Shown: one piece after another, positions 2,088 through 50,176 of the stretch
Layout: the number at the start of each line of letters is the position of its first letter
How positions within the stretch are numbered: the stretch's first letter is position 1
NCBI GenBank assembly: GCA_035515475.1
Contig: DATJBF010000005.1
Coordinates: forward strand, 41,420-105,419
DNA: 64,000 nt
From: Verrucomicrobiia bacterium
GTDB lineage: Bacteria > Verrucomicrobiota > Verrucomicrobiia > Palsa-1439
Direction: 5' to 3'
Translations under genes and position numbers: made by a program
The notes under the pieces: model-generated
Seen by the model: the letters and a program-made list of their open reading frames with translations, nothing else
Databases searched by the model: none
What the model was told of the DNA's origin: nothing

Positions 2088-4943
2088 CTATTTCCGGTCG
2101 ATCGCTTTCTGCAGGAACTGGCCGGTGTAGGACTGCGGGACCTGGCAGATCCGTTCGGGCGGACCTTCGGCGACGATGCGGCCACCCGCGTCGCCACCTT
2201 CAGGGCCGAGATCGATAATCCAGTCGGCACACTTGATGACGTCGAGGTTGTGTTCGATAACGAGCACGGTGTTGCCGGCATCGCGTAATTTGGTCAGCAC
2301 CTCGAGCAGTTTGGCGATGTCGGCAAAATGCAGACCCGTCGTCGGCTCGTCCAAGATGTACAGCGTCCGACCCGTGGCTTTCTTGGCCAGTTCGGTGGAA
2401 AGTTTCACGCGCTGCGCCTCGCCCCCGCTGAGCGTGGTCGCCTGCTGGCCGATCTTGAGATAGCCCAGCCCGACGTCCTGCAGCGTTTGCAGAATGTCGC
2501 GGACCTTCGGCACGGCGCGGAAGAACTCCTCGGCTTCATCAACAGTCATGTCGAGCACGTCGGCGATGTTGCGGCCTTTGTAGGTGATTTCGAGTGTTTC
2601 GCGGCTGTAGCGTTTCCCGCCGCATTGCTCGCACGTCACATACACATCGGGCAGGAAGTGCATTTCGATCTTGATGATCCCGTCACCCTGGCACGTTTCG
2701 CAACGGCCGCCTTTGACGTTGAAACTGAACCGGCCCGGGCCGTAGCCGCGGACGCGGGCGTTGGGCAATTGCGCAAACAGCGTGCGAATGTGGTTGAACA
2801 TTCCGGTGTACGTGGCGGGGTTCGAGCGGGGCGTGCGGCCAATGGGCGATTGATCGATGACGATCACCTTGTCGAGTTCTTCGACGCCAACGATCTCGTC
2901 GTGCGCGCCGGGCCGGTCCTTGGCGCGGTAGAATCTTCGGAACAACGCTTTCCGCAGAATCTCGTCCACCAGCGTGCTCTTCCCGGAGCCGCTCACTCCG
3001 GTGACGCAGATGAGCGTGCCGAACGGAAAACGGACGTCGATGTTCTTGAGGTTGTTCTCGCGTGCGCCGCGAACGGTGAGCCACCCGCGTTTCGGCGGGC
3101 GGCGGGTCTTCGGCACGGGAATCTGCAACTCGCCGCGGAGATACCGGCCGGTAAGTGATTTCGGGCTGTCCAGAATTGCCTGCAGCGGTCCCGCCGCCAC
3201 GAGGTGGCCGCCGTGCAACCCCGCGCCGGGGCCGAGATCGACGACGAAATCCGCGGCGCGAATGGTGTCTTCGTCGTGCTCGACGACGATGACGGTATTG
3301 CCGAGATCGCGCAACCCCTTGAGGGTGTCGAGCAAGCGATGATTGTCGCGCTGGTGGAGACCGATGCTCGGTTCGTCGAGGACATAGAGCACGCCGACGA
3401 GCCCCGCGCCGACCTGTGTGGCCAGGCGAATCCGCTGGGCTTCGCCGCCTGAGAGCGTGTCGCTCTGGCGATCGAGCGTCAGGTAGGAGAGCCCGACGTT
3501 CTTGAGAAAGGTGAGCCGCGAGCGAACCTCCTTGATGATCTCGCCGGCAACTTCCTGTTCGAACTGCGTCAGTTCCAGCGAGGCCAGGAACCCGAGCGTC
3601 TCGTCGATGCTCATGCGGGTGAGATCGATGATCGACTTGCCGGCGACCGTGACCGCCAGGCTCTCGGGACGCAGGCGCGCGCCCTTGCAGTCCGGGCACT
3701 GCATGGCCACCATGAATTGTTGCAGCCGTGCCTTGGTAAACTCGCTGTCCGTCTCGTCGTAGAGTCGTTCGAGGTTGGGGATGACGCCTTCGAACGGCTT
3801 TTCCATTTTGCGCCACGCGCCCTTCCGCCAATAAGTGAACTGGATCTTTTCGTCGCCCGAGCCGTACAACAATCCCTTCTGGGCGTTCTCGGGCAGGTCC
3901 TTGAAGGGGACTTCGATGTCGATGCCATAATGCTTGGCCAGACCGCGCAGCAACATCCGGTAATAGATCAGCAGACGCCGCCCGCCGCGACGCCACGCTG
4001 CGATCGCGCCGTTGGCGACCGATTTGTTCCGGTCGGGCACAATCAGATCGGGATCGAAAAACGGTTTCGTGCCCAGGCCGTGGCAGGTCCGGCATGCGCC
4101 GTCGGGCGAGTTGAACGAGAAATGTCGCGGCGTGAACTCGCCGTAGCTGATGCCGCATTCCGGGCAGGCGTTCTGACTGCTGAACAGACGTTCCGACCAC
4201 GGCGCGGTGACCGGCGTGGTCGCGGTGCGGTACAACGCCAGCAGCAGGCCCGAACCCCACTTGAGCGTCGTTTCGACCGAATCGGCGAGCCGCGCCCGGG
4301 TTCGAGGGAAGGCAGTCAACCTGTCGACGACCAGTTCGATGTCGTGGTTGCGGCGTTTGTCGAGCTTGACTCCGTCGGACAGGTCGAGAATCTCACCGTC
4401 GACGCGCGCCCGCACGAACCCCTCGCGTTTGATGCGGGCAACCACGTCGCGGAATTCTCCCTTCCGCTTGCGCACCAGGGGCGCCAGCAGCATGAGTTGC
4501 GTGCCGTCGCCAAGGTCCAGGATCTGGTCGACGATCTGGCTGGTGGTCTGGGTGGTGATGGGACGCCCACAGCGGTAGCAATGCGGTTTGCCGATGTTGG
4601 CGAAGAGCAGGCGCAGGTACTCGTAAATCTCGGTGGTGGTCGCGATGGTCGAACGCGGGTTGCTGCCGCCAAACCGTTGTTCGATGGCAATCGCCGGGGA
4701 GAGCCCCTCGATGTAGTCGACGTCGGGCTTCTGCAGGTGCTCCAGGAATTGTCGCGCGTAAGCCGACAAGCTCTCGACGTACTTCCGCTGGCCCTCGGCA
4801 TAGATGGTATCGAATGCGAGACTCGATTTGCCCGAGCCGCTCAATCCCGTGACGACGATGAGCTTCTCACGCGGGAGGTTGAGATGGATGTTCTTGAGGT
4901 TGTGCTCCCGGGCGCCGGCAATAATGATGGAGTCTTTGGGCAT
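2088..4943 (-). CDS. uvrA: excinuclease ABC subunit A (UvrA)
   Basis: Two ABC ATPase modules ([35 protein letters not shown]; second Walker [11 protein letters not shown]), zinc-finger cysteines, about 950 aa. True start is probably [19 protein letters not shown] at 4943; the ORF-track start at 5087 is an upstream extension. Confidence 0.95.
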
Positions 4944-47101: not shown

Positions 47102-47115
47102 GGGCCCCGTCCTCC

Positions 47116-47250
47116 CAAATCCGAAATCCGAAATCCGAAGCCGAGCCGCAGGCGAGACCTGCGCAGCAAATCCGAAACAATTTCCAAACTCAAATTTGGG
47201 AAATTCGGATTTGGCTCGTATTTCGAGATTCGAATTTCGGATTTCATTTG
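47116..47250. repeat. AT-rich array of direct and inverted AAATCCGAA/TTCGGATTT motifs between resB stop and hemA start
   Basis: aaatccgaaatccgaaatccgaag (three or more direct copies), aaatccgaaacaatttcc...gggaaattcggattt (imperfect 18-20-bp inverted repeat), ttcgaatttcggattt. Local GC is far below the flanks. Confidence 0.7.
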
Positions 47251-48446: not shown

Positions 48447-48727
48447 GGCCACCTTTCGTGTGACGGGCGGTGGCTTAGCAGTGGCCTTGCCAGTGGATGC
48501 CGCAGGTTGGGGCGACGGTCTGTAAGCGCTTGGCCTACAGTCGATTGCCGTGCGCGAAATCGCGCAGGCGACGAATCGGCTGCGCCGATCGTCGACCGAC
48601 AGATTGGCGGCGGGCTCCCGTTTCATGACAGCTTGTCATCAGTCGCCAAGCCAAGAGGCGATAGGGGGACGCGCTGCGTTGCAACCGAATCTTTGACTCG
48701 GCTCCGCTATTCGTCGCGGTGTCAACC

Positions 48728-49381
48728 CTACGGAGGTGTCGTGCGTGTGAGGTAGCTCCTTCGCGATTCCCTCACTTGGAAGCCGATCCGTTTCTTCGGC
48801 GGCGGTTCTGGCAGCGCAGGTAGGTCGATGATGTCCATGACGCGTTGGAGGATGGTGACGATGGCCGCTTCGTGCACATCGAGCCGGTCCTTGAGTTCCT
48901 TTTCCAGCGCGGCGAGTTTGCGGGCTTGTTCGCGGGTCGCGGTCAGCGTGGCGCGCATCTTCACGAAGGCGCGTACGACAAACACGCTCATGTCGACGGC
49001 ACGTGGACTGTTGAGGACGTTTGCTGCCATAATGGCGCCGTGCTCCGTGAAGGCAAAGGGGAGATAGCGGCGGCCGCCCCTGCGTTTTGAGGTCACAATC
49101 TGTGACCTCAAAGCTCCTTCGGAACCGGTCACAAATTGTGATCGGTTCGATGCGGTCACAAATTGTGACCGCATGGCTTCAAAGTCCTCAGCGTTCAATT
49201 GGAACATGAAATCCGATGGAAATTTCCTCGAGTTGCGTTTGACTGCCTGATTCAAAGCCTTTGTTGTCACGCCGTAAACCGCTGCCAAGTCGGCATCGAG
49301 CATGACCTTCTGACCGCGAATCTCGTAAATCAGCCGGTCAAGATATTCCACCCGAATTACTGAGGGCTTCTCCTGAGCCAT
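48728..49381 (-). CDS. ORF6N-domain protein (phage/mobile-element-associated DNA-binding family) with internal triplicated RSQ(F/I)VT repeat
   Basis: IRGQKVMLDADLAAVYGVTTKALNQAVKRNSRKFPSDFMFQL ... RRYLPFAFTEHGAIMAANVLNS is the ORF6N signature. The canonical LRSQIVTS segment is preceded by two extra RSQFVT copies. Confidence 0.7.
   Translation of the reverse strand: MAQEKPSVIRVEYLDRLIYEIRGQKVMLDADLAAVYGVTTKALNQAVKRNSRKFPSDFMFQLNAEDFEAMRSQFVTASNRSQFVTGSEGALRSQIVTSKRRGGRRYLPFAFTEHGAIMAANVLNSPRAVDMSVFVVRAFVKMRATLTATREQARKLAALEKELKDRLDVHEAAIVTILQRVMDIIDLPALPEPPPKKRIGFQVRESRRSYLTRTTPP
49091..49170. repeat. three in-frame copies of a 17-bp perfect/near-perfect palindrome GGTCACAA(A/T)TTGTGACC with extended compensated arms, inside the ORF6N coding sequence
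   Basis: Copies at 49091-49107 (ggtcacaatctgtgacc, arms extend to ttgaggtcaca/tgtgacctcaa), 49127-49143 (ggtcacaaattgtgatc) and 49154-49170 (ggtcacaaattgtgacc, arms tgcggtcacaa/ttgtgaccgca). Spacings of 36 and 27 bp keep the reading frame. Confidence 0.8.
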
Positions 49382-49582
49382 CGCCGGGTAGTATGCCAAT
49401 GCGAGTCAGTGGCGGCAAGTCTCTCGTGACAGGTGTCAGCAACCGGACGAGGAACGCTCACGGCGCGCTCAGCGAGCACGCCCTACCAACGACCGTCAGG
49501 CGGAAACACTCGCGCCACTGCAAAAAAACGCCGGCCCGGTTGGTGACCGCGCCCGGCGTCGGCAGACAGGTCTCGGGAAAAC

Positions 49583-50176
49583 CTAGTGTTTGACCTTGGG
49601 ATCGGGATGCGCGATCAGCGCGAACGCCTGCTCGTAATCGAACCCGACTTTCTTGCCGTCCTTCGTCGTGTAGCGGTCGGGCTTCCAGGTTGGGTTCTGG
49701 CTGTTGTGGCACATCTCGCAGCTCTTCGACGCCGGATAAACCAGACCGCCCTCGATGGCTTTCGCGCGGTCTTCCATCGTGCTCTTCGCCATGTATTTCT
49801 TTCCGGGACCGTGACAGGATTCGCAGGTCACGCCATCTTCGGGTTTGATTTTTTCCGTCGCGACGCTCTCGGTGAAATTGTAGGCAGTCGAATGGCACCG
49901 GAGGCATTTGCCGCTGGTCTGGGGATTGTCAACGCCGACTTTGGCGCCCGCCGCTTTGGCCTCGGGCGTCCCGAGCAACTCGAACGCCTTGGCGTGTGGA
50001 CTAGCCTGCCACTTGGCCAGGGCGTTGCCGCTGTCTTCCGACTTGTGACAGAGGCCGCAGGTTCTGGCGCCGACGTAACTGGCGGCGTCGCGGTCAGCCG
50101 CGCTGCTGCTGAGTGAGATTAGCATTCCGGCTGCGAGAGTCACGCAAAGGGTCGATATCGGTGTCCGGTTCTTCAT
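49583..50176 (-). CDS. periplasmic tetraheme c-type cytochrome
   Basis: 197 aa from MKNRTPISTLCVTLAAGMLISLSSSAA (signal) with CGLCH, CLRCH, CESCH, CEMCH. The 533-aa ORF-track entry is an artefactual 5' extension. Confidence 0.8.
   Translation of the reverse strand: MKNRTPISTLCVTLAAGMLISLSSSAADRDAASYVGARTCGLCHKSEDSGNALAKWQASPHAKAFELLGTPEAKAAGAKVGVDNPQTSGKCLRCHSTAYNFTESVATEKIKPEDGVTCESCHGPGKKYMAKSTMEDRAKAIEGGLVYPASKSCEMCHNSQNPTWKPDRYTTKDGKKVGFDYEQAFALIAHPDPKVKH

Follow-up and report, generated by a model that had tools for sequence, protein, structure and literature searches.

A DNA palindrome maintained within ORF6N genes across phyla dictates the codons and residues of the segment it encodes

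We describe a short palindromic element that lies inside genes for proteins with an ORF6N domain, starting from one such gene (48728..49381, minus strand; an open reading frame of 217 aa counted from its ATG, with a possible alternative upstream start, TTG at 49399) in a 64-kb stretch of DNA from a Verrucomicrobiia bacterium, which we call the window and whose numbering is used throughout. This gene carries three copies of the element in frame, and related copies were found at the same place in ORF6N genes of many bacteria, plasmids and phages. The element is an integral, family-wide companion of ORF6N genes, specific to these genes and their immediate surroundings, and a strand-symmetric constraint or process at the level of the nucleic acid maintains the palindrome and dictates codons and residues. 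It is the symmetry of the nucleic acid that is maintained, so that the codons and the peptide they spell have to follow it. No earlier description of the element was found in the literature on ORF6N, on the palindrome sequences or on the topic, most subscription journals being outside the coverage.

The 17-mer GGTCACAANTTGTGACC, for which the sequence-only reading had reported three copies at 36- and 27-bp spacing, indeed matches the plus strand of the window at 49091-49107 (one mismatch, GGTCACAATCTGTGACC), at 49127-49143 (one mismatch, ending in TTGTGATC) and at 49154-49170 (exact), with start-to-start distances of 36 and 27 nt that equal 12 and 9 codons. When the 64-kb window was shuffled by dinucleotides, 0.26 such matches were expected and three or more were reached in 0 of 100 shuffles, and no further copy was found elsewhere in the window, even when 3 mismatches were allowed. 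Each match lies within a longer palindromic unit. The first unit in the mRNA, the 'M-type' unit (49150..49174; coding strand ATGCGGTCACAA-T-TTGTGACCGCAT, encoding M-R-S-Q-F-V-T-A-S), has 12-nt arms (49150-49161 and 49163-49174) that are 100% complementary around a 1-nt centre. The second, the 'N-type' unit (49122..49148; coding strand GAACCGATCACAA-T-TTGTGACCGGTTC, encoding N-R-S-Q-F-V-T-G-S), reads GAACCGGTCACAA-A-TTGTGATCGGTTC at 49122-49148 and has 13-nt arms with a single mismatch, A.C on the mRNA strand, which arises because the Arg codon is CGA where CGG would pair. The third, at the canonical position, is the 'L-type' unit (49086..49112; coding strand TTTGAGGTCACA-GAT-TGTGACCTCAAA, encoding L-R-S-Q-I-V-T-S-K), with 12-nt arms (49086-49097 and 49101-49112) that are 100% complementary around an asymmetric 3-nt centre; its CAG ATT is the 'flipped' form of the CAA TCT (Q-S) found in homologues. 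The earlier observation that the copies have distinct yet mutually complementary outer arms thus holds, with two units fully paired and the third carrying one mismatch, and so does the presence of three units in this region, although the element spans 49086-49174 rather than 49081-49180 and the unit measures 25-27 bp rather than 17-25 bp.

All three units are read in frame (...FEA-M RSQFVT AS-N RSQFVT GS-EGA-L RSQIVT SK-RRGGRRYLPFAFTEHG...), and they are the longest three of only six palindromes in the 64-kb window with arms of at least 10 nt and at most one mismatch. They do not form an array of the CRISPR type, being unlike each other, separated by gaps of about 1-10 nt and in frame inside a gene. 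The copy encoding LRSQIVTS is the canonical one, as had been proposed; the other two had been taken for in-frame duplications and turn out to be distinct, recurrent unit types (ATGCGG..CCGCAT for the M-type, AACCGG..CCGGTT for the N-type) rather than fresh duplicates, present in the same M-N order in many homologues, including the closest one (P0002). On the opposite strand an open reading frame of 40 aa (49087-49209, plus strand) also encodes RSQ.VT three times (MRSQSVTSKLLRNRSQIVIGSMRSQIVTAW…), because the palindromes are centred on the first base of a codon; nothing suggests that it is a gene.

Among the 120 best homologues of the window protein the motif occurs one to four times per protein. 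Homologues with a single copy, for which an alignment had been suggested earlier, do exist and form the commonest class by a strict pattern (65 of the 120), followed by those with two copies (36) and three copies (4), and the 15 homologues that score zero by this pattern carry variants such as RSQSVT. The residues of the motif vary in pairs: at its second and fifth positions S is found with V or A, C, F or Y with G, and L with A, and in the flanks M is found with A, N or D with G, and L with S-K. A DNA palindrome that has the first base of the fourth codon as its centre would call for every one of these residue pairs.

To sample the family independently of the motif, three sets of 80 loci were fetched with peptide patterns that lie outside it (MSVFVVRAF and ELK..RL..H for the genome set, FTE[HQ]G.. 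and LD..LA..Y. for the viral contig set, [VI]RG..VMLD and ....VKRN for the metagenome set), which gave 231 distinct ORF6N genes. A segment of 360 nt holding the linker was scanned for palindromes, and flanking DNA was scanned in the same way to obtain the chance rate. Of the 231 genes, 209 (90%; 0.056 expected per segment) had a site at the linker with at least 10 of 12 possible Watson-Crick pairs, 170 (0.010 expected) had one with at least 11 and 81 (0.0017 expected) had one with all 12. In an unrestricted scan of 81 genes, 84 palindromes were perfect over arms of 7 nt or more, and 69 of these were the linker site, mostly with arms of 12-15 nt. The palindrome is retained across phyla and across host G+C contents of 0.28-0.67, and ORF6N is the only gene to which the element is linked consistently across Verrucomicrobiota, Bacteroidota, Legionella, Acidobacteria and phages.

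The element lies between the 'FP.DF.F.L' and 'FTE.G' motifs of the ORF6N domain and consists of a loosely conserved core, GGTC[A/G]CAA-N-TTG[T/C]GACC, in which CAA/TTG is nearly invariant, surrounded by variable but self-complementary outer arms, with a total length of 25-29 bp. The core positions T9, C12, A13, A14, T17, G18 and A21 are each conserved in at least 90% of the sites. The units of the window agree with this description: they have an odd centre and the CAA-N-TTG core, their arms measure 10 nt or more, and they lie between the two motifs. Units are gained, lost and recombined in frame (one to four per gene), and some loci (for instance L011, L014, L026 and L048 in our numbering) contain hybrid units with left and right outer arms of different types, which look like products of recombination between units.

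The codons at the palindrome depart strongly from those used elsewhere in the same genes. When the peptide was kept fixed and the codons were redrawn from the usage in the rest of the same genes, 5.39 of 14 pairs were expected at the sites in frame 0 (the frame of RSQ[IF][VA]T and its relatives), versus 11.97 observed (116 sites in 76 genes; z=43). For instance, Ile is encoded by ATT in 63 of 64 cases (28% in the background), Phe by TTT in 29 of 29 (42%), Gln by CAA in 102 of 113 (41%; CAA:CAG 102:11), Arg by AGG in 44 of 82 (5%), Leu by TTG or TTA in 67 of 70 (19%) and the Ser that follows by TCA in 57 of 62 (10%). An ungapped alignment of 146 distinct sites showed two-sided compensatory changes at 12 of the 14 pair positions, with 428 cells of covariation against 127±9 when partners were shuffled, a value reached in 0 of 500 shuffles; the alignment was preselected for at least 10 of 12 pairs, so that the percentage of paired positions is circular and the diversity of pair types is not. 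The same covariation is visible in the peptides as S..V, S..A, C..G, F..G, Y..G, L..A, M..A and N..G. A cluster of rare codons for slow translation was considered and rejected, as the codons are rare only in GC-rich hosts and the palindrome is found equally at G+C contents of 0.28-0.67 and in non-coding DNA.

Another important finding was that the element is read in two frames. The one frame translates the core as R-S-Q-[I/F]-[V/A]-T and the other as V-[T/A]-N-C-D, and the third frame would contain TGA (from the TGTGA arm). An ORF6N gene from Acidobacteria (L074), the product of which is otherwise close to the window protein, lacks RSQIVT and has the DNA GTGGTCGCAAATTGCGACCAC at the same place, a palindrome read one base out of register as V-V-A-N-C-D-H. 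Among the 70 linkers of the metagenome sample, 39 distinct ones are in phase 0 (RSQ[IF][VA]T and relatives) and 16 in phase 1 (e.g. ELVTNCDQL, EVITNCDNL, QLVANCDRF and ELVTICDRF), second-frame readings such as VANCDH and VTNCDQ being included. The phase-1 sites have 10.7 of 12 positions paired versus 6.65 under the synonymous null (z=15). Different frames and different linkers occur among proteins that are only 65-70% identical. More distant ORF6N genes keep a palindrome at the site with a pair of the core altered on both sides, for instance those of two Segatella copri plasmids (34-40% identity), which have ATGTGGTCGAAA-A-TTTCGACCACCT (YVVENFDHL) and GAGGTTATCAAA-AAA-TTTGATAACCTC (EVIKKFDNL).

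Copies of the element are also found in non-coding DNA close to ORF6N genes. A census of the 78 genomic loci and their flanks (CAA-N-TTG core, arms of at least 9 nt, at most one mismatch) gave a density of 1.70 per kb inside the ORF6N genes, 0.55 per kb in the 500 nt upstream (about 170-fold above the far flanks), 0.08 per kb in the 500 nt downstream and 0.003 per kb, or 1 copy in about 330 kb, in the far flanks. Within these loci the copies keep to the ORF6N genes and the DNA right next to them, and no insertion into many unrelated genes of the kind known from Rickettsia was found. A genome-wide repeat, such as a repetitive extragenic palindrome (REP) or a miniature inverted-repeat transposable element, was rejected on the same census and on the absence of copies elsewhere in the window. 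Upstream copies are present in 11 of the 78 genomic loci, at 9 of the 70 metagenome linkers and in most members of a Bacteroides-type lineage; no non-coding copy was found within the window. Some upstream copies form arrays of two to six (six in L010, four in L058, three in L041), which are non-coding, because the frames are mixed and interrupted by stop codons. The members of an array differ in their inner and outer arms, each being still self-complementary, like the arms GATGCCAA, GGTCACAA, TATCGCAA and CGGTCACAA in L058. The arrays of L041, L052 and L058 sit between the gene for argininosuccinate synthase and the ORF6N gene; a linkage of the arrays to type I restriction-modification was considered and dropped, the conserved upstream gene being that of argininosuccinate synthase and not hsdM. 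In L010 (2500-2800) five of the six upstream palindromes share one open frame (…LRSQVATGS…LRSQIVISK…RPQSVTAS…LRSQSVTLK…MRSQIATGV*) and the sixth is in another; this stretch may have arisen by decay of a coding array, or it may be a small open reading frame made of repeats only.

In the Bacteroides-type lineage one copy has its centre 53-61 nt ahead of the start codon, and a second lies about 200 nt inside the gene. The upstream copy showed no convincing overlap with a promoter of the Bacteroides type or the sigma-70 type, by eye or by scan. The surrounding element carries candidate genes for two integrases, a relaxase and a primase (all four recognised by eye from the sequences) and ardA (a Pfam match), and in L098 (599-1129 and 2378-3607) the ORF6N gene has the antirestriction gene ardA on one side and a candidate gene for a tyrosine integrase, also recognised by eye, on the other; the context is a candidate mobilisable or conjugative element. 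Upstream and internal copies can share their arms: in L249 an unusual arm, CTTATCACA, is common to both, and the internal palindrome of L246 is identical over 23 bp to the upstream palindrome of L252. On a conjugative plasmid of Legionella pneumophila (NZ_CP048619.1, L441) the internal palindrome TTTAAGGTCACAA-A-TTGTGACCTTAGA has a match, TTAAGGTCACAA-T-TTGTGACCTTAA, 18 nt past the stop codon, which is not followed by a T-run. These two palindromes (TTAAGGTCACAA-A/T-TTGTGACCTTA; 3156-3182 and 3870-3894) are almost identical, are 713 bp apart, have opposite centre bases and bracket the C-terminal domain of the ORF6N protein of 298 aa.

The claim of the sequence-only reading that selection acts on the palindrome beyond the RSQFVT peptide is supported by the codon null (z=43), by the two-sided changes at 12 of 14 positions, by the second frame and by the non-coding copies. 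Its counterpart, in which the need to encode RSQFVT alone makes the palindrome unavoidable and homologues do not keep the complementarity of the arms, was tested and did not hold; a palindrome forced by the peptide is excluded by both synonymous nulls (z=43 and z=15), the second reading frame and the non-coding copies. The step from compensatory changes to selection calls for a qualification: a constraint or process beyond the peptide is there, but template switching from arm to arm also gives paired changes, and the three copies of the window gene alone are insufficient to separate selection from arm-to-arm copying.

The distribution of mismatches indicates on which nucleic acid the symmetry is kept. 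Mismatches were counted in 236 distinct sites with 9 or more of 12 pairs, of which about 35 would be expected by chance. Read on the coding strand, stem positions 3-12 of these sites held 2153 Watson-Crick pairs and 207 mismatches, i.e. 49 G.T, 63 A.C and 95 others. RNA-type covariation with tolerance of G-U on the transcribed strand was thus not found among these sites, and the lack of wobble tolerance on either strand argues for an element at the level of DNA rather than RNA. Positions that could not pair in a hairpin are symmetric as well, the pair next to the centre (k=2) being Watson-Crick in 223 of the 236 sites and the innermost (k=1) in 174 of the 236. Asymmetric centres occur in both orientations (AAT 98 and ATT 59, AAA 22 and TTT 4, ATC 9 and GAT 6), and a flip of the centre changes the protein: AAT/ATT exchanges Ile and Phe, AAA/TTT exchanges Gln-Asn and His-Phe (e.g. 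SQNVI and SHFVI in L274), and ATC/GAT exchanges CAA TCT (Gln-Ser) and CAG ATT (Gln-Ile), the latter being the form of the third unit of the window. The upstream copy has A at its centre in L257 and T in L258, two contigs that differ at only 3 of 1000 other positions, and the centre seems to have flipped again in L267; this evidence for flipping comes from a small sample and is suggestive.

The most economical explanation of the conserved apex with its covarying arms, of the lack of wobble and of the tight linkage to a single protein that is predicted to bind DNA is a DNA site to which the product of the same gene would bind. The reading we put forward, at somewhat less than even confidence, is that the element is a predicted cis-acting DNA site recognised by the ORF6N protein of the same gene, for feedback or titration. 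The domain was reportedly defined by Iyer, Koonin and Aravind in 2002 as a predicted DNA-binding domain. A presumably dimeric ORF6N protein would recognise the palindrome inside its own gene, either as a dyad-symmetric duplex or, which would fit the conserved apex and the covarying stem better, as an extruded hairpin or cruciform, and binding within the gene, plus at upstream sites where these are present, would lead to feedback on its own expression or to titration of the protein. Such physical coupling of the protein to its site would suit a horizontally mobile element that passes between phages, plasmids and chromosomes. Like parS in parB, the site is dyad-symmetric and lies inside the gene.

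Several observations weigh against a site for the gene's own protein. We infer ORF6N as the partner from linkage alone, and a fold search for a DNA-binding fold in the modelled protein gave no significant match (the best was a SKI/Dachshund domain, E=0.41). Sites within one locus (L058) differ at covarying positions; a sequence-specific dimer needs no symmetry at positions that it does not read, and such heterogeneous sites favour structure-specific recognition or none. In 67 of the 78 genomic loci, that of the window included, there is no upstream copy, so that a classical promoter-operator role cannot be general. Perfect pairing without wobble and flips of the centre are also what functionless template switching from arm to arm would give. 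Finally, among the first 80 loci in viral contigs that contain the 17-mer GGTCACAANTTGTGACC, an ORF6N gene is absent from the fetched stretch in 54 (12 of the other sites lie inside an ORF6N gene, 13 about 57 nt upstream of one and 1 more than 600 bp from one), and the 12 ORF6N-less sites that were examined adjoin gene ends, often lying between A- and T-runs in the manner of a terminator hairpin.

The exact 17-mer was found in at least 120 stretches of viral contigs, with 83 distinct 33-mers among the matches listed, and two control palindromes of matched composition in 23 and 22 viral stretches (14 and 15 distinct), which makes the real 17-mer at least five times more frequent than the controls. 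The matches of the control palindromes look terminator-like as well. ORF6N-less examples with extended arms are found in AT-rich phage contigs (L081-L200), for instance at 5409-5443 in L112, 7400-7434 in L128 and 5633-5659 in L084, and only four unannotated records of a phage collection provided examples from cultured phages. The ORF6N-less viral 17-mers may be ordinary terminators or relatives of the ORF6N element.

A purely protein-level explanation, in which R-S-Q-I-V-T is required, packing residues covary and the palindrome with its rare codons is a by-product, is very improbable. The peptide is highly conserved, its covarying residues trade size as packing partners might (S+V, C+G, F+G, Y+G, L+A), and in a few phage lineages KSQIVTSS persists despite two adjacent mismatches in the palindrome. 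Both tests on synonymous codons speak against it, as do the different peptide that the same DNA encodes in the second frame, the identical arms of non-coding copies, the low confidence with which the segment is modelled and the fact that the palindrome is kept both where the codons are 'rare' (GC-rich genomes) and where they are not (AT-rich genomes). Hairpins in the RNA, whether in the coding region, the 5' leader or the 3' end, could act on mRNA stability, processing (e.g. by RNase III) or the rate of translation of a scarce protein, an alternative that we regard as unlikely but worth keeping. The folding of the mRNA, which had been proposed as a check, indeed predicts three strong hairpins (-56 kcal/mol, z=-5.65 versus shuffles), non-coding copies lie near the start codon (-18 to -160) or just past the stop codon, and a conserved apex (C-AANTT-G) on a covarying stem is the classical pattern of a hairpin recognised by a protein. 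RNA helices, however, normally gather G-U far above A-C, which these sites do not; the symmetry at k=2 and the preference for CAA over CAG are seen at positions unable to pair in a loop, and the two orientations of the centre would give different loop sequences. Rfam gave only chance-level matches (E>6) in the region of the window and none at the gathering score in 12 related loci, and the hairpins of the window are not followed by a U-tract. The latter also excludes intrinsic terminators for the three palindromes, the flanks of which are coding sequence without T-runs.

The palindrome could also be functionless and maintain itself, with template switching or arm-to-arm conversion copying changes, extending the arms, flipping the centre and spawning local copies, and with selection on the protein as a filter. 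The perfect Watson-Crick pairing without any preference for wobble, the flip between near-identical contigs and the frequency of both centre orientations, the hybrid units, the variable number of units and the low model confidence of the segment would all be in line with this. It leaves unexplained why 90% of the genes retain the palindrome at one position across phyla, across G+C contents of 0.28-0.67 and in two frames, why core positions are conserved and why copies are confined to the vicinity of ORF6N genes; short perfect palindromes are deletion-prone, and persistence over a long time suggests selection. We consider this explanation improbable, in spite of a precedent in the mitochondria of Nematomorpha, where coding palindromes are reported to be kept alongside protein function (PMC6649704). 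Alternatively, the palindromes may form a module for recombination or variation and serve as crossover points at which gene segments (the N- and C-terminal halves or the repeat segment) are swapped, inverted, deleted or duplicated, because each copy is both a direct and an inverted repeat of every other. Four unrelated linker types among proteins that are 65-70% identical, the frame-1 linker of L074 within a clade that is otherwise in frame 0, the 23-bp palindrome that is internal in L246 and upstream in L252, the hybrid arms, the matched copies that flank the C-terminal part of the Legionella gene and the candidate tyrosine integrase gene that abuts the upstream copy in the Bacteroides-type element point in this direction. 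Yet no variant with an inversion or a deletion between copies was observed, the majority of genes contain just one copy, most loci have no recombinase nearby, and selection for evolvability by itself does little to conserve a site; we give this explanation only a slim chance. A further, speculative and rather improbable proposal is that the structured DNA element is the primary unit of selection around which the ORF6N gene was built: the protein would read its own coding hairpin or cruciform, site and reader would be inseparable, changes in the site would alter the encoded segment, and the whole might be the sensor or trigger of a widespread single-gene anti-phage, anti-repressor or plasmid-maintenance system, for instance through competition between the hairpin of self and those of invading DNA.

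By analogy, the element would work most like intragenic cis sites that are linked to the genes of their own proteins, and it looks most like coding palindromes and the Rickettsia palindromic elements (RPE). Known intragenic cis sites are parS in spo0J/parB of Bacillus subtilis, the pT181 origin in repC and the phiX174 origin in gene A, and auxiliary operators in coding DNA are lac O2 in lacZ and gal OI in galE. In these, as in ORF6N genes, a palindromic or hairpin DNA signal constrains codons, the site is inseparable from the protein gene, and extra copies can lie in nearby non-coding DNA. Binding has been demonstrated for them and their sequence is conserved, whereas the arms of the ORF6N site covary freely and binding is a prediction; moreover, the ORF6N site is family-wide across phyla, is read in two frames and occurs in one to four tandem in-frame copies, and the ORF6N protein is not a homologue of ParB, Rep or LacI. 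REP sequences and bacterial interspersed mosaic elements (BIME) with their REP-associated tyrosine transposases (RAYT), and the origin hairpins of HUH-Rep proteins, are DNA hairpins recognised by structure and sequence. They share with the ORF6N element a conserved short sequence at or near the apex, a covarying stem and copies beside the cognate gene. The ORF6N protein, in contrast, has no HUH/Y1 motif or catalytic domain (an HUH/Y1 transposase was found neither in the window protein by Pfam nor among the neighbours examined), there is no genome-wide dispersal, and the elements are perfect palindromes down to a centre of 1-3 nt inside the gene. RPE are said by Ogata et al. in 2000 to lie in frame inside open reading frames and to be tolerated as an extra peptide. 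In-frame palindromic units with coding and non-coding copies are common to both, but RPE are about 100-150 bp long and dispersed genome-wide in unrelated genes, whereas the ORF6N units are about 27 bp long, nearly absent elsewhere and part of the canonical domain. The coding palindromes of Nematomorpha mitochondria are perfect inverted repeats in functional genes, with both arms coding and both structure and protein function preserved; they are reported to be up to 284 bp long, to occur in many mitochondrial genes of one animal lineage and to be tied to no single protein family (PMC6649704). By that account they differ from the ORF6N unit, with its 25-29 bp, its restriction to one domain family across bacteria, phages and plasmids and its non-coding satellite copies.

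The element is kin to intragenic cis elements and coding palindromes, and its breadth and its conservation in two frames make it an unusually clear case that lends itself to experiment. What looks like the 'signature motif' of a large Pfam family, LRSQIVTS for one subfamily and VxNCD for a second, merely reflects a DNA palindrome, a natural example of a nucleic-acid signal that overrides the choice of amino acids across phyla and in two frames, and a warning against reading every conserved peptide as functional in the protein. A centre that flips back and forth (Ile/Phe, Gln-Asn/His-Phe) and units that are gained and lost in frame offer a ready system in which to study the evolution of palindromes under coding constraint. 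ORF6N proteins abound in phages, in conjugative elements, on tiny plasmids and in candidate defence loci (PADLOC PDC-S05), and the cis element, tied as it is to nearly every copy, might give a handle on their mechanism.

The window protein has ORF6N as its sole Pfam domain above threshold (PF10543, E=3.1e-35, 120.8 bits versus a cut-off of 27.8), matched in two stretches because the extra repeat units split the alignment to the profile: the repeat region breaks up the N-terminal ORF6N domain, after which comes a helical or coiled C-terminal half. An AlphaFold model from an alignment of 40 sequences had a mean predicted local distance difference test (pLDDT) score of 69.7, with about 90 for the N-terminal domain and less than 50 for residues 80-101 (the second and third units), which lie between a helix (64-78) and a strand (109-112); in this model the repeat segment is not confidently structured and would be tolerant of mutation. 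No solved relative was found in the PDB by sequence. The protein matches the PADLOC models of PDC-S05, a candidate single-gene anti-phage system (PDLC04869, E=1.9e-48; PDLC04856, E=2e-46), and PHROG 4792, 'anti-repressor' (E=1.5e-21). One representative of PDC-S05 lowered the plating of phages T7 and T5 about 1000-fold in E. coli (bioRxiv 10.1101/2024.09.26.614923); that representative, described as having a Virulence_RhuM domain, is a different protein from that of the window, and the palindrome was not concerned. ORF6N genes are also found on plasmids of isolates, e.g. of Bacteroides, Legionella, Segatella and Sulfuricurvum and others. The two Segatella copri plasmids mentioned above (NZ_CP152354.1, L439, 2955 bp; NZ_CP152486.1, L440, 4140 bp) have two annotated genes each, a replication initiator and ORF6N, by the gene table of PLSDB, which can be incomplete, and a gene content this small implies that the ORF6N module probably matters to the plasmid itself, for instance in maintenance, copy control or (anti-)defence. 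Each plasmid has a single long palindrome of this kind, located within its ORF6N gene.

In the window the ORF6N gene is solitary among housekeeping genes, with a ResB-like gene downstream, a gene for a multihaem cytochrome c upstream and a cytochrome b-like gene also in the surroundings. Its G+C content (0.53 for 49000-49399) is below that of the surroundings (about 0.61, with 0.59-0.65 in the neighbouring housekeeping genes), which is consistent with horizontal acquisition of a solitary gene, and an identical protein is present in a metagenome-assembled genome of the Verrucomicrobiae. The non-coding region upstream of the gene (49382..49531, minus strand), which presumably holds promoter and leader, has no copy of the palindrome, unlike about 14% of homologous loci, and is preceded by a terminator-like hairpin of the cytochrome gene (49549-49532, minus strand), the sole terminator-like site in 48600-49620. 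Two tandem repeats of heptamers, at 47113-47139 (TCCGAAA, 3.9 copies) and 47216-47245 (TCGAATT, 4.3 copies), lie in an AT-richer stretch around the end of a hemA-like gene and the start of the ResB-like gene.

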